From the NCBI GenBank assembly GCA_021525805.1, contig GCA_021525805.1_3940.1: 64,000 nucleotides of DNA; one strand, 5' to 3'. Below the pieces are notes generated by a model that ran no database searches, had not been told where the DNA came from, and worked only from the letters and a program-made list of their open reading frames with translations. How positions within the stretch are numbered: the first letter of the stretch is position 1; every line of letters starts with the position of its first letter. This document shows positions 3,150 to 19,146 of this stretch, piece by piece. The stretch is from a phage. The position numbers and the translations under genes were made by a program.

Positions 3150-4800
3150 TAATCAACGCAGCGGGGCTAAATAGCCCCAGATACCTTTACAGCCCCTTTC
3201 CCATATAGATTCGATAGAGTCTATCTCATAGGGGCTTTTTTACATCCTATCAAATCCCTTATACAACCCTTTCCCTTTCCTTTCCAGAATCTTATCAGAC
3301 CTTAAAAAGCAATAACTCTATAGTCTACTCTATAGCCTTTTATCAAATCAACTTAAATATAAGCCCATAACCCGAAAGGGAAGGGCAACCCCTTAAACGC
3401 TCTATAACGCTCTATAACAGCCTTATCAACCTAACTTAAAGGATTGCATTACCTCACCCTTAAAAGCCCTTTATAAAGCTTCCCAGAGCCTTAAAAGAAT
3501 CTTATAAGGGTATAAGCTTATAGGCTGACTAGTATCTTGTGAATGGTTAAACAAACCCCTTGATAGTCATTAAAAAGCATGTTATAGGGGCTATGAAGTT
3601 ACTTTGAAGTAGCTTAAAAGTTACGTAAATGCTAGCCCCCTTAACATTTTCTTAACAATTTCTTAACAAACCCTACATAGTTATGCTTTTAAGGCACTTG
3701 TTAGCAACTTGTTAGCCCCTTGTTAAATCTCTGTTAAGACCACGTAAAAGCCTTGTAAGAGTCTTTGACATAGCCTTTAAAGCCCCTGTAAAGCCCTATA
3801 AAGAGCTATCTGTACAGTTGGGCTGTAGTTACTAGGGAGAGACTTAAAAGGGGCTATACAGAGCTATACAGAGCTTTTAAGAGGTATGTTTAAAGAATCA
3901 CTAAGAAAGGAAAGGGAACGATAAGAAAAGAGTAGTGACCATGTTAATAGCTTGTTAAAAAGATTAAACACTTGTTAGGAACTTGTTAATTATCTTAACA
4001 AAATAACTCTTAAAAATTAACTTGTTAGCTCTTGTTAGTCATCTGTTAAGACTCTGTAAAGGCTATGTATCAACTGTTAAGAAATTGTTACAGCCTTGTT
4101 AGTTCTGTTAAGAAACTGTTAAGACCTCTGAAGAGTTGTTAAGAAGATGTGAGAACTGTTAAGAGATTGTTAAGGATATTTTAAAATTTTGCAAAGGGGG
4201 TGTTAAGGAGCTGTTAAGGGCTACCAAGCAGATATACATCCTAGACAGATATTTTTCAGTGCCTTCAAAGACCCTAAAAAATGACTTGATAGCCCTATTT
4301 TATAAAAATTTTAAGATTCTGAATAATTACCTATACAGTCTTTTAAAAATACAGGTAATAACAGGTTTATAAGATACCTTGTTAGTACCGTGTTAGACCT
4401 TGTGAGATAAGGTCTGTGAAGACATTCCTGTTAAGTTTGTTAAAACAGTCTATATAGAGGCTTAGTAATACCTAGTGAACACCTATAGAGAGTCATCTAT
4501 GTAACATAGAGATTAAGAGGTGTATAGGAGCTTCTAAGAGTGTGTAGAGAGATGGTTAAGGTGATTGTATAGGCTGTTAAGAAGGCTTGTTAGAAGAGTG
4601 TTTAGAAGGATTGTTAGAGGGCTAGTTAGAAGGGTTATACAGAGGGCTATTAAGACCACTAGATAGTTACTAAGATACTATATAGCACTATATAACTATA
4701 TAGAGAGTAAGATTAAGAAGGTTGTTAAGAAGGATAGATATTTTGTTCACATATGATGGTGACCCAGAGGTTGGGACAACCGATAAAATTTTATAAAAAT
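3150..4800. repeat. ORF-free repeat-rich region (phased TGTTAAG/TTGTTAG-type short repeats plus other short direct repeats and hairpins)
   Basis: no ORF of 60 aa or more on either strand; dozens of copies of CTGTTAAGA / CTTGTTAG / GGTTAAGG often about 10-11 bp apart, densest 3690-4740; also CTATAACGCTCTATAAC, CTATACAGAGCTATACAGAGC. Confidence 0.8.
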
Positions 4801-4836
4801 TAAAAAGCCCCCAATTAAGGAGGCTCTTAAGATATT

Positions 4837-5388
4837 TTAAATCAGTGTTTCCAGAACTGTCTTCAGTGATGACTTGGTTGTCTGATAAAAATGAGTGAAT
4901 CCATTGTTGTTATCGAACACCTGCATCATGATATCATCTCCCTTAATTGGGTACACTCGGATATCATAGTGAAAACCATTAAAGACAGCAGAACCATTAC
5001 AGAATGCACTAAAATCATCCACTGAGATGTACTCTTCATGACCTGTGATTTTTATACAAACGCCTTTACTCGGTCTCTTAGGGTTGATATCTTCCATCAC
5101 AGACATACTCTGTCCACCAAGAGATACCATAGTGACCACTTTACGGTTCTTCTGTCTAAAGTACATCTTAACTTTCTGCAAAGTATCTTCATAGAACGGA
5201 TAAGACTTCTCTACAAAGATTCCTTCTAATGGCTCTTTACCATTTACAGTCTCCCTGTTATGACGTACTGAGAAGATAAGTTGTCTTAGTACGTCAAGAT
5301 TTTCTTCGGAAAGTGCTTCTCGAACATCACTCCAGTCAAGTACTAGGTAGTTACCTTCAACTTCTTTTACATCTTTAAAAACTTGCAT
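4837..5388 (-). CDS. hypothetical protein
   Basis: 183-aa ORF, first gene of minus-strand block. Confidence 0.6.
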   Translation of the reverse strand: MQVFKDVKEVEGNYLVLDWSDVREALSEENLDVLRQLIFSVRHNRETVNGKEPLEGIFVEKSYPFYEDTLQKVKMYFRQKNRKVVTMVSLGGQSMSVMEDINPKRPSKGVCIKITGHEEYISVDDFSAFCNGSAVFNGFHYDIRVYPIKGDDIMMQVFDNNNGFTHFYQTTKSSLKTVLETLI

Positions 5389-5440
5389 ATTCGCTACCTT
5401 CTAAGTTCTACAAAGGGGCTATCAAGTAACCCCTAAGCTA

Positions 5441-5665
5441 TTACTCAGACTTTTCAGTCTTCTTATCGGATTTCTTACTAGTCTTCTTCTCAGCTTTCTG
5501 CTCAGGTTCCTTCTCAGGAGTTGCCTTGATAACCATATCAAGAAGCTCTGATAAGTCACTCTTCAGCAAAGTAACAGGCTGCTCATTGTAGAAGTTTTTG
5601 TCAAGATAGACTTTGAACTCTTCAATAGATGGAAATCCAAAAATTGGTACAGGTGTTTTAATCAT
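5441..5665 (-). CDS. hypothetical small protein with Lys/Glu-rich C-terminus
   Basis: 74-aa ORF. Confidence 0.45.
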   Translation of the reverse strand: MIKTPVPIFGFPSIEEFKVYLDKNFYNEQPVTLLKSDLSELLDMVIKATPEKEPEQKAEKKTSKKSDKKTEKSE

Positions 5666-15873: not shown

Positions 15874-16030
15874 CCTAATAAGATTTTAAAGCCAAGCTTC
15901 ATTCGGATGTTGCTTTGGTATCCCTCGTGTATTGTCGTACACACTGATAAAGCACCTAGTAGGTGTCACGGAGAAGAGATAATATCAAGCTCTCCAAAGG
16001 TTCTAGTCACCGGATTAAACAAGACTATGC

Positions 16031-16053
16031 AAAGACCTTTTTAGGTCTTTTTA
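16031..16053 (+). terminator. putative rho-independent terminator
   Basis: AAGACC-TTTTT-AGGTCTT followed by TTTT. Confidence 0.55.
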
Positions 16054-16131
16054 GAGGGCTTCTAAGGTTATTACAGCTTGTTGTGGAACCTTGTTGCTTA
16101 GGTTCTTAGAAGTTCTCTAAAAAGATTTAAT

Positions 16132-16209
16132 GGGAGATTGACGGTAATTGGTAAACCTATCTCGCTTAGAACGAGATGTTTGAGGGTTCGAATCCCTTGT
16201 CTCCTACCA
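16132..16209 (+). tRNA. tRNA with anticodon TAG (Leu-type anticodon, short variable arm)
   Basis: acceptor GGGAGAT/GTCTCCT, anticodon arm TCTCG-CTTAGAA-CGAGA perfect, T-arm GAGGGTTCGAATCCCTT, A73, CCA encoded. Confidence 0.6.
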
Positions 16210-16216
16210 AATTAAT

Positions 16217-16292
16217 GCAGGTGTAGCAAAATGGTTATGCGGCTGACTCTTAATCAGTAAGACGATGGGTTCAATTCCCTCCACCTGTACCA
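16217..16292 (+). tRNA. tRNA-Lys (anticodon CTT)
   Basis: acceptor GCAGGTG/CACCTGT; anticodon arm GCTGA-CTCTTAA-TCAGT; CCA encoded; paralogue of the TTT copy. Confidence 0.7.
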
Positions 16293-16298
16293 GATATT

Positions 16299-16373
16299 GG
16301 GGATGTAGTTTACATGGTTAAAACATAAGTTTTGCAAACTTAAGTACAGGGTTCAATTCCCTGCTTCTCCACC
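16299..16373 (+). tRNA. tRNA-Cys (anticodon GCA)
   Basis: anticodon arm AAGTT-TTGCAAA-AACTT; T-arm CAGGGTTCAATTCCCTG; CCA encoded. Confidence 0.65.
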
Positions 16374-16380
16374 AATTAGT

Positions 16381-16455
16381 GCATCCATAGTTTAAACGGG
16401 AAAATTACAGTCTTCCAAACTGAGGTTGAGGGTTCGATTCCCTCTGGATGCTCCA
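16381..16455 (+). tRNA. tRNA-Gly (anticodon TCC)
   Basis: acceptor GCATCCA/TGGATGC perfect; loop CTTCCAA; T-arm GAGGGTTCGATTCCCTC; CCA encoded. Confidence 0.75.
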
Positions 16456-16461
16456 AACAAT

Positions 16462-16538
16462 GCTGCTTTCGTATAATTGGCTATTACACATCCCTTGTAA
16501 GGATGGAAATGCAGGTTCGAGTCCTGTGAGCAGCACCA
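16462..16538 (+). tRNA. tRNA-Thr (anticodon TGT)
   Basis: anticodon arm CATCC-CTTGTAA-GGATG perfect; T-arm CAGGTTCGAGTCCTG; CCA encoded. Confidence 0.75.
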
Positions 16539-16540
16539 AT

Positions 16541-16632
16541 TCAGAGGTCAAGTGAAAGACCGCTGGTGTCAACTGAAGACCGTAACAAATTCCACGGAGT
16601 TGAGTTAGCGGCACAACTTCAGACCTCTTTCA
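16541..16632 (+). ncRNA. candidate structured RNA S6 (outer helix AGAGGTC/GACCTCT enclosing about 75 nt with box-like GAAGACCGT)
   Basis: nested complementary segments CTGAAG/CTTCAG, GTTG/CAAC; no tRNA T-loop; no ORF. Confidence 0.35.
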
Positions 16633-16633
16633 T

Positions 16634-16708
16634 ACTCGCTTAGTTTATATGGTAAAACATCACCCTTACAAGATGAAGAAAAAGGTTCAAGTCCTTTAGT
16701 GAGTACCA
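16634..16708 (+). tRNA. tRNA-Val (anticodon TAC)
   Basis: acceptor ACTCGCT/AGTGAGT, loop CTTACAA, T-arm AAAGGTTCAAGTCCTTT perfect, CCA encoded. Confidence 0.65.
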
Positions 16709-16709
16709 T

Positions 16710-16787
16710 GTTCCAGTATCCCAATTGGCAGAGGATGCAAGCTCAAACCTTGTATTAGTGACGGTTCGAATCCGTCTTGGAACACCA
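16710..16787 (+). tRNA. tRNA with anticodon CAA (Leu-type anticodon, short variable arm)
   Basis: acceptor GTTCCAG/TTGGAAC; D-loop AATTGGCAGA; anticodon arm GCAAG-CTCAAAC-CTTGT; CCA encoded. Confidence 0.6.
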
Positions 16788-16805
16788 ATTTAAAGAGGCT
16801 ATTTA

Positions 16806-17363
16806 ATGAGATATTTGAAGTATGCTTCATGGATTTTCTTAGCTTTACTAGACCCAATTGCAGCAACCCTAGCAGTTATCTTAGCACCTTTCGTAGTTCC
16901 ATTCTACAGTGAGAAGAAAGGGCATCTACCTTTTGGATTCAGATGGATGGAGACCTATGACAACCCGATTGATGGTGATAAAGGCCACGTTGAGAGATGG
17001 GCTAAGATTAGAAAGATTGGTAAGCTCGGTGTTTATATGCAGAGAGTTGGATGGCTCTGGAGAAACAAAGCTTATAACTTCTCTTACCATGTATTAGGAA
17101 GAGATGTAAAAGATGTTACTAAGTGGAAAGGCAATATCAACGTAAGTTCTGACCCTGAAGATAATCAGACTGGTTATCTCCTAATGTGGAACAGCAATGC
17201 TTGGGGATTATTCGCTTTTATCCCATCAATTAAAGTCTTTGGTAAACAATTTTACTGGAGAATTTATGTTGGGTGGAAACTAAAAAGTGTTGTCCCAGAA
17301 GAAAGAGCATTCTCAAGGGAAAGAGTTATGTTGGCATTCTTTATTCATCCACTGAGAAAGTAA
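16806..17363 (+). CDS. hypothetical membrane protein embedded in tRNA array
   Basis: 185-aa ORF with AAGAGG RBS; N-terminal TM segment WIFLALLDPIAATLAVILAPFVV. Confidence 0.6.
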   Translation: MRYLKYASWIFLALLDPIAATLAVILAPFVVPFYSEKKGHLPFGFRWMETYDNPIDGDKGHVERWAKIRKIGKLGVYMQRVGWLWRNKAYNFSYHVLGRDVKDVTKWKGNINVSSDPEDNQTGYLLMWNSNAWGLFAFIPSIKVFGKQFYWRIYVGWKLKSVVPEERAFSRERVMLAFFIHPLRK

Positions 17364-17371
17364 AGATTTAA

Positions 17372-17447
17372 AGGGGATTAGTTTACAAGGTTAAAACCTC
17401 GGTCTTTGAAATCGAAGAAGTTGGTTCAATTCCAACATCCCCCGCCA
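17372..17447 (+). tRNA. tRNA-Gln (anticodon TTG)
   Basis: anticodon arm TCGGT-CTTTGAA-ATCGA; T-arm GTTGGTTCAATTCCAAC perfect; CCA encoded. Confidence 0.65.
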
Positions 17448-17449
17448 AT

Positions 17450-17528
17450 GCTCCATTACTCCAATTGGCAGAGAGGCCAGACTTAAAATCTGTGTTATGT
17501 ATCGGTTCGAATCCGATATGGAGTACCA
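17450..17528 (+). tRNA. tRNA with anticodon TAA (Leu-type anticodon)
   Basis: acceptor GCTCCAT/ATGGAGT; D-loop AATTGGCAGA; loop CTTAAAA; T-arm ATCGGTTCGAATCCGAT perfect; CCA encoded. Confidence 0.6.
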
Positions 17529-17533
17529 AATTT

Positions 17534-17609
17534 AGCGGTATAGCATAACTGGCAATGCAACAGTCTCTGAAGCTGTCCTATTAAGGTTCAAATCCTTATG
17601 CCGCTGCCA
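17534..17609 (+). tRNA. tRNA-Gln (anticodon CTG)
   Basis: anticodon arm ACAGT-CTCTGAA-GCTGT; T-arm TAAGGTTCAAATCCTTA perfect; CCA encoded. Confidence 0.65.
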
Positions 17610-17640
17610 CTTCTAAGGGTTCTTACGAGAGTCCTTAAAT

Positions 17641-17716
17641 GTGGCCTTATCATAAATGGTAATGACCCATGCTGTGAACATGGTCTATACGGGTTCAAAT
17701 CCCGTAGGTCACCCCA
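17641..17716 (+). tRNA. tRNA-His (anticodon GTG)
   Basis: anticodon arm CCATG-CTGTGAA-CATGG perfect; acceptor GTGGCCT/AGGTCAC; CCA encoded. Confidence 0.75.
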
Positions 17717-17722
17717 ATTTAT

Positions 17723-17798
17723 AGTCCAAGTAGCTTATATGGTTAAAGCGCGTGTCTGAAAAACATGAGAAGAGGGTTCAAATCCCACTGGACTACCA
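17723..17798 (+). tRNA. tRNA-Phe (anticodon GAA)
   Basis: anticodon arm CGTGT-CTGAAAA-ACATG; T-loop TTCAAAT; CCA encoded. Confidence 0.7.
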
Positions 17799-17814
17799 AT
17801 TTCAAAGGTGCTTA

Positions 17815-18549
17815 ATGAAAGAGATGACAGAACAAGGTAAGGAGATTTTTAATCTCTTAAAAACCGGTAAAGGGTTTTCTAACCCACTTATTACTGGTGC
17901 AGCAGTTCTCGGTGGAACCGTAGCTGCCTCAACATCACTTATAAGCTCTATTAGCTCTGTAACAGACCCTACAATGAAGGAGAAGCTTGTTGCTGCTGGA
18001 CTTACAACAGTCCTTCTAAACAGCTTTACAACAAGCCTGACAAGCACTACAGCAACTACTAAGACCCTAACAGACTATGGTCAAAAGTCTATTGATGAGT
18101 TTTCATCACGTATGCAGGTAGCAAAGGGATACTCCAATGTTATGGGTGCAGCAGGAGAACAAGTTGGTTGTACACCATTCAGTGGTATTATGGGTGTTGC
18201 TACAGAATATGGTCAAAAAGCTATTGACATGATGAACAGTACACTAGATAGTGTTAATGGTGTGTTAAGTGACTTACAAGATGCTATTGATAAGGGTCTT
18301 GATACTGTTTCTGATTTGGCTAACCAAGCTGTTAGCAAGATTAATGAAGGTATCTCAAAGATTACAGCTTATGCAGATGAAGTTGTGCAGATGATTGAAG
18401 AAGAAGCTGCCCTTATTGCAGAGTACCTTAAAACGAATATCAATGGGTTCTTAGCAGGTATCTTACCAGACTGGTTTGATGATGCTTGTAAAACTGGTGT
18501 AATCGACACTATTGCAACACCAGAAATGAAGAACGCATTGCAGAAATAA
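17815..18549 (+). CDS. hypothetical Ser/Thr/Ala-rich protein (start refined from track ORF 17752..18549)
   Basis: track ORF starts at GTG inside tRNA-Phe; ATG at 17815 lies just past the tRNA; stop abuts tRNA-Ser. Confidence 0.55.
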   Translation: MKEMTEQGKEIFNLLKTGKGFSNPLITGAAVLGGTVAASTSLISSISSVTDPTMKEKLVAAGLTTVLLNSFTTSLTSTTATTKTLTDYGQKSIDEFSSRMQVAKGYSNVMGAAGEQVGCTPFSGIMGVATEYGQKAIDMMNSTLDSVNGVLSDLQDAIDKGLDTVSDLANQAVSKINEGISKITAYADEVVQMIEEEAALIAEYLKTNINGFLAGILPDWFDDACKTGVIDTIATPEMKNALQK

Positions 18550-18550
18550 T

Positions 18551-18643
18551 GGAAGATTAACCCTAAAAGGTAAGGGAGCAGTTTGCTAAACTGCCAGTAG
18601 CTGAGAAATCGGTGTACCAGTTCAAGTCTGGTATCTTCCTCCA
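18551..18643 (+). tRNA. tRNA-Ser (anticodon GCT), long variable arm
   Basis: 93 nt; acceptor GGAAGAT/ATCTTCC perfect; anticodon arm GCAGT-TTGCTAA-ACTGC perfect; T-arm ACCAGTTCAAGTCTGGT; CCA encoded. Confidence 0.75.
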
Positions 18644-18647
18644 ATTT

Positions 18648-18723
18648 GAATCCGTGACAGAAATGGCTATGTGCCTGTCTGCAAAACAGGTTTATAAGTG
18701 TTCAAGTCCCTTCGGATTCTCCA
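18648..18723 (+). tRNA. tRNA with anticodon GCA (second Cys-type copy)
   Basis: acceptor GAATCCG/CGGATTC perfect; anticodon arm CCTGT-CTGCAAA-ACAGG perfect; CCA encoded. Confidence 0.6.
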
Positions 18724-18759
18724 AGTTATTTTACTCTCTCTCAATTAAAATAATAATAA

Positions 18760-18820
18760 TGCCCTGCTATAAGTATTCTTCCTTTCGCTACCGAAGAGTA
18801 TTTTTAGACAGGGCTTTTTT
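18760..18820 (+). terminator. compound hairpin terminator closing the tRNA array
   Basis: GCCCTG...CAGGGC outer stem with nested AAGAGTATT palindrome, followed by TTTTTT. Confidence 0.55.
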
Positions 18821-18883
18821 ACAGAGTTATACTTTATAGGAAGACTTATACAGTATGTCTCTGACGTACATTGTGGTTTCTCC

Positions 18884-18910
18884 TTGACGGTCTCTGTGCC
18901 GTCTTTTTTA
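18884..18910 (+). terminator. putative rho-independent terminator
   Basis: GACGG-TCTCTGTG-CCGTC followed by TTTTTT. Confidence 0.5.
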
Positions 18911-18945
18911 AGGGGAAACATGGTTAATTATTTGGAGAAAACATA

Positions 18946-19146
18946 ATGAGTGAGACCGTTTATAAAGAACTTTATGAAGCTAATAAAAAGCTAGAATTTA
19001 TGCAGAACACTATCATGGCAATTGCAGATAGATTATCTGTAGCAACAGGTATTGATATTAAAGAAGCATCTATGGATGCACTTCTGGATGCTGTTGATGC
19101 AAAGTTCGAAGTTAAGAAAGAAGAGACTGCTACAGACTCTGAATAA
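18946..19146 (+). CDS. hypothetical small protein preceding terminase (possible small terminase subunit or accessory)
   Basis: 66-aa ORF with GGAG RBS; position only. Confidence 0.35.
   Translation: MSETVYKELYEANKKLEFMQNTIMAIADRLSVATGIDIKEASMDALLDAVDAKFEVKKEETATDSE

Follow-up and report, generated by a model that had tools for sequence, protein, structure and literature searches.

Three tRNA-Leu genes with a short variable region

We analyzed a 64,000-nucleotide (nt) stretch of phage DNA (GenBank assembly GCA_021525805.1, contig GCA_021525805.1_3940.1), hereafter the window, which carries three tRNA genes with leucine anticodons and a short variable region in place of the long arm of bacterial tRNA-Leu. 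Region 13800-18800 of the window was 95-97% identical to Felix O1-like Salmonella and E. coli phages (Felixounavirus, Ounavirinae), and the tRNA cluster within it is syntenic with those of Felix O1 and Bas63 (JohannRWettstein). A first-pass annotation, based on folding by hand, had placed tRNA-Leu genes with TAG, CAA, and TAA anticodons at 16132, 16710, and 17450; ARAGORN returned exactly these coordinates and anticodons. The same three genes, each with the length found here, are annotated in the Felix O1 RefSeq and Bas63 records, where the short arm goes unmentioned. The three genes, the cluster, and the long-arm tRNA genes that served as internal controls, all identified by ARAGORN, are as follows.

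16132-16209, + strand: tRNA-Leu(UAG), 78 nt including CCA; Rfam 44.5 bits
16710-16787, + strand: tRNA-Leu(CAA), 78 nt including CCA; Rfam 44.0 bits
17450-17528, + strand: tRNA-Leu(UAA), 79 nt including CCA; Rfam 47.5 bits
13890-18723, + strand: tRNA cluster, 22 tRNA genes, all on one strand
14448-14535, + strand: tRNA-Tyr(GUA), 88 nt, 15-nt variable arm; internal control
15786-15875, + strand: tRNA-Ser(UGA), 90 nt, 20-nt variable arm; internal control
18551-18643, + strand: tRNA-Ser(GCU), 93 nt, 21-nt variable arm; internal control

Against the Rfam tRNA model RF00005 (gathering score, 29), the E value was ~1e-7 for all three tRNA-Leu genes, and each shows the acceptor, D, anticodon, and T arms of a canonical cloverleaf. 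In the ARAGORN folds of all three, an acceptor stem of 7 bp is followed by a 3-bp D stem with an enlarged loop and by a normal anticodon arm (5-bp stem, 7-nt loop); the T arm has a 5-bp stem and the loop TTCGAAT, which is of the form TTCRANY. Because the stated lengths include the encoded CCA, the tRNA bodies are 75-76 nt long. With length counted from anticodon to T-loop, the variable region in the ARAGORN structures is 5 nt in the UAG gene, 6 nt (ATTAGT) in the CAA gene, and 7 nt (GTTATGT) in the UAA gene, compared with 15-21 nt in the Tyr and Ser genes of the same cluster, so the lengths of 78-79 nt and the short variable regions described in the first-pass annotation were correct. None of the three has a class-II arm, that is, a variable region of at least 10 nt forming a stem-loop. 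A mis-set loop register, which had been raised as a possible cause of the unusual fold, was ruled out, since ARAGORN, Rfam, and the alignment with host genes described below agree; the software found neither other anticodons nor long arms.

The A73 and Leu-like D-loops that had been recognized by hand-folding were also recovered. A73 is present in all three ARAGORN structures, and the D-loop is AATTGGTAAA in the UAG gene and AATTGGCAGA in the CAA and UAA genes. The latter two are paralogues (72% identical) with U48 and an A9/C13 core, combined with a 3-bp D stem in the CAA gene and with G1.U72 in the UAA gene; neither has the class-II core of G9 with G13 or A13. The UAG gene belongs to a separate lineage (51% identical to the CAA gene), has G1.U72, and keeps the class-II-like G9 and G13. 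Its D stem is weak, with three pairs, a C.U mismatch, and an extra nucleotide ahead of the stem, and its anticodon loop, CTTAGAA, has A37, versus G37 in host leuW.

The E. coli K-12 genes with these three anticodons, leuZ (UAA; 87 nt), leuX (CAA; 85 nt), and leuW (UAG; 85 nt), are each present in a single copy. When aligned with them, the phage genes matched in all four arms and were interrupted only at the variable arm, by a single clean gap of 7-9 columns. Outside this gap they were only 51-56% identical to the host genes, which indicates that they are not recent host captures. They share with bacterial class-II tRNA-Leu the anticodons, A73, U8:A14, A15:U48, the D-loop pattern A-A-Y-Y-G-G-Y-A-R-A, the 3-bp D stem, and the T-loop. 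They differ in the arm (13-16 nt in the host genes and in T5 versus 5-7 nt in the phage genes) and in the core, with G9/G13 in the host versus A9/C13 in the phage CAA and UAA genes. The anticodon loops also differ from those of the host at positions 32, 37, and 38 (UAG, CTTAGAA versus TTTAGGT; CAA, CTCAAAC versus TTCAAAA).

Bacterial TyrRS uses the long arm of tRNA-Tyr. The long arm likewise matters for serine identity (PMC9976931), and work cited in a study of the toxin MenT3 (PMC11541572) has SerRS binding the variable arm. The rules for E. coli leucyl-tRNA synthetase (LeuRS), as given in a 2023 review of identity elements, are different: A15-U48, G18G19, and A20a are essential and tertiary pairs linking the D-loop to the T-loop matter, and the enzyme still charges variants that have neither anticodon arm nor variable arm (PMC9976931). 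The use of long arms by bacterial SerRS and TyrRS, and not by LeuRS, would explain why the arm is lost in Leu and not in Ser or Tyr. The whole E. coli LeuRS set (A73, U8:A14, A15:U48, G18G19, and A20a) is present in the three genes, and the D/T-loop pairs G18:U55, G19:C56, and U54:A58 are supported in all three at the sequence level.

The motif AATTGG, which had been taken as Leu-like, is not Leu-specific by itself, as it also occurs in the tRNA-Thr of the window. The full 10-mer AATTGGCAGA was more informative. In 120 bacterial loci fetched by a pattern built on this 10-mer, all 112 matches inside called tRNAs were tRNA-Leu, which makes the D-loop of the CAA and UAA genes a strong Leu marker. 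The three genes have no G3.U70 (Ala), no long arm (Ser), and no G-1. By established identity rules, the three anticodons suit no anticodon-reading synthetase, and no synthetase other than LeuRS fits the genes. For the near-identical homologues in Shigella phage Sf14, published tRNAscan-SE results place the Leu model at the top for all three (67.4, 49.1, and 60.2); 13 of the 26 Sf14 tRNAs were classed there as "inconsistent" with their own isotype models (PMC12482277).

Distribution, conservation, and core types of short-arm tRNA-Leu

Leu genes identical or nearly identical to those of the window were found in more than 260 phage genomes, so the compact pattern is not due to chance. The CAA gene was 100% identical in 160 phage records and the UAA gene at least 99% identical in 216, and the UAG gene was the more variable one. 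Annotated and ARAGORN-confirmed tRNA-Leu genes of 74-78 nt were also present in Erwinia phage Hena2 (Kolesnikvirus; three genes), Aeromonas phage AhP_Mru1 (Demerecviridae; three), and two Herelleviridae, Enterococcus phage EFGrKN (one) and Lactobacillus phage LpeD (three). In all four of these phages, tRNA-Ser stays at 85-93 nt.

Pattern scans of IMG/VR combined with ARAGORN, covering phages, viral contigs, and a few bacterial chromosomes, gave at least 93 distinct short-arm (5-7 nt) and at least 259 long-arm tRNA-Leu sequences; both sets are from among the matches listed, and their totals are not comparable. Anticodons of the 93 short-arm sequences were tag, caa, taa, cag, gag, and aag. At viral loci with a short-arm Leu gene, tRNA-Ser was long in 56 of 56 cases and tRNA-Tyr in 24 of 25, and the arm loss is thus Leu-specific. 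Viral loci with two or more Leu genes were all short-arm in 21 cases, all long-arm in 23, and mixed in 15.

Selection on the fold was assessed with 81 short-arm tRNA-Leu sequences that were less than 90% similar pairwise. In this set 98.5% of cells were paired, a fraction that is partly built in because ARAGORN reports only sequences that fold, and compensatory changes were seen in 19 of the 20 cloverleaf pairs. The covariation score was 1.04; shuffling lowered it to 0.24, and sliding the 3' partners by 1-3 columns left at most 0.18. All 93 distinct short-arm sequences have U48, and 86 of them have A73. The diversity of pair types, U48, A73, and the Leu-type D-loop are not explained by ARAGORN selection. 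Within the genus, the anticodon stem of the UAG gene is TCTCG/CGAGA in the window versus CCATC/GTTGG in Bas63 with pairing kept, which is a compensatory replacement.

Most short-arm genes also differ from long-arm genes in the core. A9 and C13 occurred together in 58 of 81 short-arm sequences versus 1 of 225 long-arm Leu sequences (Fisher p ~1e-42, uncorrected for relatedness). Among the long-arm sequences, G9 was present in 224 of 225, C13 in 3 of 225, and the class-II core G13 or A13 in 218 of 225. A minority of short-arm genes keep G9 with G13 or A13, and for 20 of the 93 short-arm sequences the nearest relative was a long-arm gene, which suggests later, independent deletions. Both core types occur in the window, A9/C13 in the CAA and UAA genes and the class-II-like core in the UAG gene. 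Among readers of CUN codons, A37 was found in 31 of 46 short-arm sequences versus G37 in 125 of 143 long-arm sequences.

A short arm is also a feature of the 77-nt tRNAL1(UAG) of T5-like phages, represented by Salmonella phage 5 (AJ604531; identical to the BF23 gene according to the record) and Epseptimavirus TrudiRoth. This gene is 76-78% identical to the UAG gene of the window, with no difference in the T arm or the 3' acceptor strand. Unlike the window gene, with its mismatch and extra nucleotide, tRNAL1 of these Demerecviridae has a regular D stem (ACG/CGT). The compact tRNAL1(UAG) of BF23 and phage 5 has been deposited and annotated as tRNA-Leu for ~20 years. At the same Ala-Leu-Ser2-Ser1 position T5, a close relative of these phages, carries a long-arm Leu(UAG) gene of 85 nt and unrelated sequence (11625-11709 of the fetched T5 locus versus 397-473 of both the phage 5/BF23 and the TrudiRoth locus), and the difference between T5 and BF23/TrudiRoth is a natural allelic replacement. 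Like the window genes, T5 tRNAL1 is a phage-encoded Leu isoacceptor in a tRNA cluster; per its record, it acts as an amber suppressor after an anticodon change. A phage-encoded tRNA-Leu thus need not be compact, as the long-arm gene of T5 shows. The tRNA-Leu of T4 is long-armed. HNH endonuclease genes lie near the T5 Leu locus and are also present in Felix O1.

Short-arm tRNA-Leu genes were not confined to viral sequences. A single pattern allowing both spacings found 7 short and 41 long genes in viral sequences versus 6 short and 106 long in GTDB; viral enrichment is therefore suggestive and not significant (odds ratio 3.0, p = 0.06), and we make no claim of phage-specificity. The bacterial count corresponds to 6 short-armed genes among 112 pattern-matched tRNA-Leu genes. 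A prophage origin of these was unsupported, as Pfam searches with 10 neighbouring open reading frames (ORFs) returned ordinary chromosomal genes only.

The cellular contigs with 5-nt-loop Leu genes (62-70% GC) came from Gordonia, Herbiconiux, a Planctomycetota metagenome-assembled genome (MAG), an Ahniellaceae MAG, and one more source; positions in the five fetched loci were 491-566, 2732-2806, 3550-3794, 4733-5008, and 2370-2445. Three short-arm Leu genes are in tandem in the Planctomycetota MAG, and the Ahniellaceae MAG has two. A subtilase gene adjoins the short-arm Leu gene in two of the five contigs, and there was no phage signal among the neighbours. A Felix O1-type tRNA-Leu(UAG) with 89.7% identity was also found in a record labelled Staphylococcus phage SA1 (GU169904.1, 60278-60355), which suggests a chimeric or contaminated assembly.

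Predicted function and alternative explanations

Sequences resembling transcription signals flank the cluster and occur within it.

13743-13771 and 13834-13863, + strand: sigma-70-like promoter matches, each 10/12, just 5' of the first tRNA gene
15143-15171, + strand: promoter-like site TTGACA-17-TATAGT, 11/12, the best of the region, 5' of the Leu-bearing part of the cluster
18886-18903, + strand: terminator-like hairpin with T run, 3' of the last tRNA gene

The promoter sites are consensus matches only, and the total of promoter-like sites was not above chance; together with the hairpin, they are compatible with one or two transcription units on the + strand. Nearly all tRNA genes of the cluster encode their CCA, and many are spaced by only 1-8 nt.

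Judged from sequence, the three genes probably encode working Leu isoacceptors of class-I shape, with a loop of 5-7 nt, that would be charged by the host LeuRS. Structure and identity elements thus support the compact phage Leu isoacceptors that the first-pass annotation had offered as one of its two explanations. The cluster, including the Leu genes, would be transcribed from host-type promoters, and the Leu transcripts would be processed like the adjoining tRNAs. Host LeuRS would then attach leucine by way of A73 and the D/T-loop elements, with the arm unneeded. The UAA tRNA would decode UUA and UUG, the CAA tRNA UUG, and the UAG tRNA CUA and perhaps CUG. In most short-arm Leu genes the core would have been retuned along with arm loss, A9/C13 taking the place of G9 with G13 or A13.

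The predicted benefit is supply for UUA and CUA, which the AT-rich phage uses more heavily than its host. The window has 39% GC, and leucine codons in its ORFs are UUA (27%), CUU (28%), CUG (14.5%), UUG (13%), and CUA (11%). The CUG-reading tRNA-Leu is a multi-copy major species in the host. Mean relative synonymous codon usage in Sf14 versus its host was 1.63 versus 1.06 for UUA and 0.69 versus 0.43 for CUA (both p<0.001; PMC12482277). Comparison with the host tRNA-Leu set and with codon usage, a check proposed in the first-pass annotation, thus fits as far as the over-used UUA and CUA are concerned and not for UUG, and for two of the three genes a role in supply agrees with codon use.

Several observations, besides the partly built-in paired fraction, weigh against working isoacceptors of this kind. 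UUG is not used more by the phage Sf14 than by its host (PMC12482277), and coverage of CUU, the commonest Leu codon of the window, depends on a suitable modification of U34 in the UAG tRNA. The UAG tRNA may work less well, given its weak D stem and its A37 in place of host G37. Minimum free energy (MFE) folding of the three sequences gave z values of only -1.5 to -1.8, and the MFE structure of the UAA gene was not a cloverleaf, a modest and uninformative outcome of the kind usual for tRNAs. Arm orientation does matter for Aquifex LeuRS, according to one report (PMC2377443), so not every bacterial LeuRS can do without the arm. Finally, the tRNA genes of Bas63 were mostly non-essential on four laboratory E. 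coli hosts (10.1101/2024.10.10.617714), and any benefit would therefore be conditional.

Working isoacceptors might instead owe their form mainly to defence evasion, being charged and used while arm loss and altered anticodon loops make them poor substrates for host toxins or nucleases that would disable the tRNA-Leu of the host itself during infection. The loop differences from the host at positions 32, 37, and 38 (UAG and CAA) and the frequent A37 of short-arm CUN readers would suit such a role, which is plausible as an additional or alternative driver but which we think unlikely to be the main one. Our search turned up no toxin or nuclease that targets tRNA-Leu via the arm, and we know of none that does. 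The arm is retained by the Ser and Tyr tRNAs, themselves genuine targets of toxins in other systems, and short-arm Leu genes also lie in ordinary bacterial chromosomal contexts. Escape of phage tRNAs from anticodon nucleases by loop mutations is a published hypothesis (PMC10264068), and MenT3 provides a precedent for a toxin that anchors on a long variable loop, that of tRNA-Ser; MenT3 shows no preference for tRNA-Leu, however (PMC11541572), and the host of Sf14 is currently known to carry only VapC, the target of which is tRNA-fMet (PMC12482277). The Ro60-like gene that adjoins the cluster is reported to counter a defence system (10.1101/2024.10.10.617714). That same gene raises the prospect that the three RNAs do not serve translation and are tRNA-shaped, Y-RNA-like ligands of the Ro60-like protein. 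The ORF at 12309-13724, just upstream, has a Ro60/TROVE + vWA fold, the PhageMaP preprint suggests that some annotated tRNAs may be Y RNAs (10.1101/2024.10.10.617714), and bacterial YrlA Y RNAs mimic tRNA (PMC4201824). A Y-RNA role for the Leu genes is nonetheless highly improbable: they are complete 75- to 76-nt cloverleaves with 7-nt anticodon loops and Leu anticodons and without an extra long stem that might hold a Ro60 site, region 13700-19000 does not contain the YrlA motif GNCGAAN0-1G, Rfam gave tRNA matches and no Y RNA family, and short-arm Leu genes also occur in phages and loci without sign of a nearby Ro60 gene. As such ligands, two non-canonical tRNA-like elements, one at 15465-15546 and one at 15690-15773, are better candidates.

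The same compactness could in principle mark relics: former class-II Leu genes, shortened by deletions and in the course of being lost. The cluster does include genes that are damaged, the hybrid tRNA-Lys(UUU) at 15051-15127 for one, and has lost the Met and Ile genes of Bas63; the D stem of the UAG gene is weak; and tRNAs are mostly non-essential in Bas63 (10.1101/2024.10.10.617714). Decay is very hard to reconcile, though, with conservation of 99-100% in hundreds of genomes, with compensatory changes that keep the stems paired, with identity elements kept across 93 sequences, and with the same architecture in unrelated phage families, and the A9/C13 core, being specific to short-arm genes, suggests adaptation and not decay. 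There is scarcely any probability, in our view, that the tRNAs pair Leu anticodons with some other amino acid, for recoding or mistranslation. Leu identity is independent of the anticodon, so that anticodon and amino acid could in principle be uncoupled, and for the Sf14 homologue of the UAG gene the Leu score of 67.4 is barely above those of Ile2 (65.7) and Lys (63.4) (PMC12482277). Yet the genes have A73 and U48 as well as the Leu-specific D-loop, AATTGGCAGA marked tRNA-Leu in every one of its 112 tRNA matches in the bacterial loci fetched with a pattern built on it, and G3.U70, a long arm, and G-1 are missing. The anticodons are also unfit for IleRS, LysRS, and MetRS by established identity rules, and Leu was the top isotype model for all three Sf14 homologues (PMC12482277).

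According to the 2023 review, tRNA-Leu is long-armed everywhere except in animal mitochondria (PMC9976931). Animal mitochondrial tRNA-Leu, the textbook natural case, resembles the phage genes in having no long arm, and its identity lies mainly in A73 and A14 (PMC9976931). However, mitochondrial tRNAs have degenerate D- and T-loops, floppy stems, and a dedicated mitochondrial LeuRS, whereas G18G19 and the T-loop are canonical in the phage genes. Of the mitochondrial-type combination of a short variable loop with reduced D- and T-loops, the phage genes thus have the short loop alone, their D- and T-loops being fully canonical. Engineered arm-less or minimal E. coli tRNA-Leu substrates are charged by LeuRS if A73 and the D/T contacts are kept, the feature set that the phage genes display (Asahara 1993 and 1998, Tocchini-Valentini 2000, and Larkin 2002, all as summarised in PMC9976931). 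Those are laboratory constructs, whereas the phage genes are natural and maintained, and most short-arm ones have the A9/C13 core. Because they must work with an ordinary bacterial LeuRS, the phage genes would be the in vivo counterpart of the arm-independence of the E. coli enzyme in vitro.

The genes themselves have long been known, but their short-arm architecture seems undescribed. A full-text literature search, which did not extend to subscription journals or to the older Russian-language papers on T5 and BF23 tRNAs, turned up no account of a phage or bacterial tRNA-Leu with a short arm. The word "variable" is absent from the Sf14 tRNA study (PMC12482277), and the BF23 genome paper is silent on the short arm. 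The architecture is real and widespread and runs counter to the textbook rule; the function is probably the expected one. A more far-reaching proposal, which we put forward tentatively and consider improbable as a whole, is that short-arm tRNA-Leu is a distinct architecture (A9/C13, a 5-nt loop, and frequent A37) that has been overlooked because annotation pipelines label it simply tRNA-Leu. It would have multiple origins, move between Ounavirinae, Demerecviridae, and Herelleviridae, occur also in some bacterial chromosomes, and be kept in part by escape from host factors that read the class-II arm or the anticodon loop, such as toxins, nucleases, or modification enzymes.

Short-arm genes make the purpose of the long arm of tRNA-Leu testable, with long-arm T5 and short-arm BF23 providing a natural matched pair at the same locus, and the core changes that accompany arm loss (A9/C13 and A37) point to contacts that matter. 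Short, orthogonal-looking Leu tRNAs could be useful scaffolds for suppressor design. Phage annotation and models of tRNA abundance, such as the tRNA adaptation index (tAI), should not presume that Leu is class II. An effect on phage fitness is probably conditional.

The Ro60-like gene and other elements of the cluster

The gene upstream of the cluster ends 166 nt ahead of the first tRNA gene.

12309-13724, + strand: ORF of 471 amino acids (Felix O1 ORF42, "RNA-binding protein"); PHROG 850; Pfam DUF2828 and DUF7788

Its likeness to Ro60 was not apparent by sequence: a single-sequence PDB search gave no match, a profile search reached only E = 0.85, and Pfam TROVE gave none at E = 10. An AlphaFold model from the single sequence had a predicted local distance difference test (pLDDT) score of only 44.6, whereas the alignment-built model (pLDDT 89.7) has a predicted Ro60/TROVE + vWA fold. 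All of the top ten Foldseek matches to it were Ro60 proteins, including that of Thermus phage phiLo (E ~1e-7; template modeling [TM] score up to 0.66). Since sequence methods alone did not reveal the likeness, it was this model together with Foldseek that settled the fold. The product has an invariant DxSxS, which we read as the metal ion-dependent adhesion site (MIDAS) motif of the vWA domain. For the Bas63 orthologue, gp130, the same fold has been reported, and it counters the ppl defence system (10.1101/2024.10.10.617714).

YrlA-type Y RNAs are characterized by a long stem with the Ro60 site, the motif GNCGAAN0-1G, and the lack of a true anticodon arm (PMC4201824). An unannotated tRNA-like element at 15465-15546 (+ strand) combines a good T arm with an acceptor stem of 7 bp and carries A73 and CCA. 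Its hairpin loop, CTTCTAA, is the anticodon loop of tRNA-Arg(UCU), there is no D arm, and 23 nt separate the hairpin from the T arm. The element stands in the place of the canonical tRNA-Arg(UCU) of Bas63 and is at least 95% conserved in ~117 Felix O1-like genomes. ARAGORN made no call for it, and Rfam gave a weak match resembling transfer-messenger RNA (tmRNA) (22 bits). It is a candidate partner of the Ro60-like protein, although the YrlA motif is absent.

Two further conserved, non-coding RNA-like stretches, at 15690-15773 and 15326-15430 (both + strand), are 100% identical in Bas63 and received no tRNA call. In one, a perfect 7-bp acceptor-like stem (ATGGGAC/GTCCCAT) is combined with a hairpin resembling a T arm, with G-CCA, and with a further hairpin whose loop, CTTCCAACA, is 9 nt long; the other consists of several hairpins, of which one has the loop CTTCCAA. 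Both bring to mind the T5 tRNA region, where "tRNA-like stable RNAs of unknown function" are annotated. Relaxed, intron, and mitochondrial settings of ARAGORN gave inconsistent low-confidence calls across 15129-15790. The sequence GNCGAAG occurs 22 times in the whole window versus 10.8 expected, always outside the tRNA region, and this excess probably reflects the codons (GAC GAA G...) of coding sequence rather than an RNA motif.

Among the remaining tRNA genes, ARAGORN found the paired Lys (ttt and ctt) and Gln (ttg and ctg) isoacceptors listed in the first-pass annotation. The two Cys genes with GCA anticodons given there were reduced to one, at 18648-18723. The supposed second is most likely tRNA-Ala(TGC) at 16299-16374, which has G3.U70 and a loop, TTTGCAA, that was misread by one base. 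The counterpart of the 93-nt tRNA-Ser(GCU) at 18551-18643 is labelled "tRNA-Arg, codon recognized AGA" in the Bas63 record (locus 5397-5489).

Two protein genes lie inside the tRNA cluster, at 16806-17363 (+ strand; DUF7338, PHROG 2143) and 17815-18549 (+ strand; DUF7217, PHROG 2114); the product of the latter also has a weaker match to a PHROG labelled "GTP-binding domain." Felix O1 itself has several HNH homing endonuclease genes between its tRNA genes, and the window is without them at those sites. The tRNA-Lys(UUU) gene at 15051-15127 (+ strand) is hybrid-like: about 160 nt that hold tRNA-Met(CAU) and tRNA-Ile(GAU) in Bas63 are missing, with the junction in the T arm. Its 3' acceptor strand is now tRNA-Ile-like, leaving two acceptor mismatches in the ARAGORN structure, and its Rfam score of 36.3 bits is the lowest among the Rfam-matched tRNAs of the cluster. 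This tRNA-Lys(UUU) is probably impaired.

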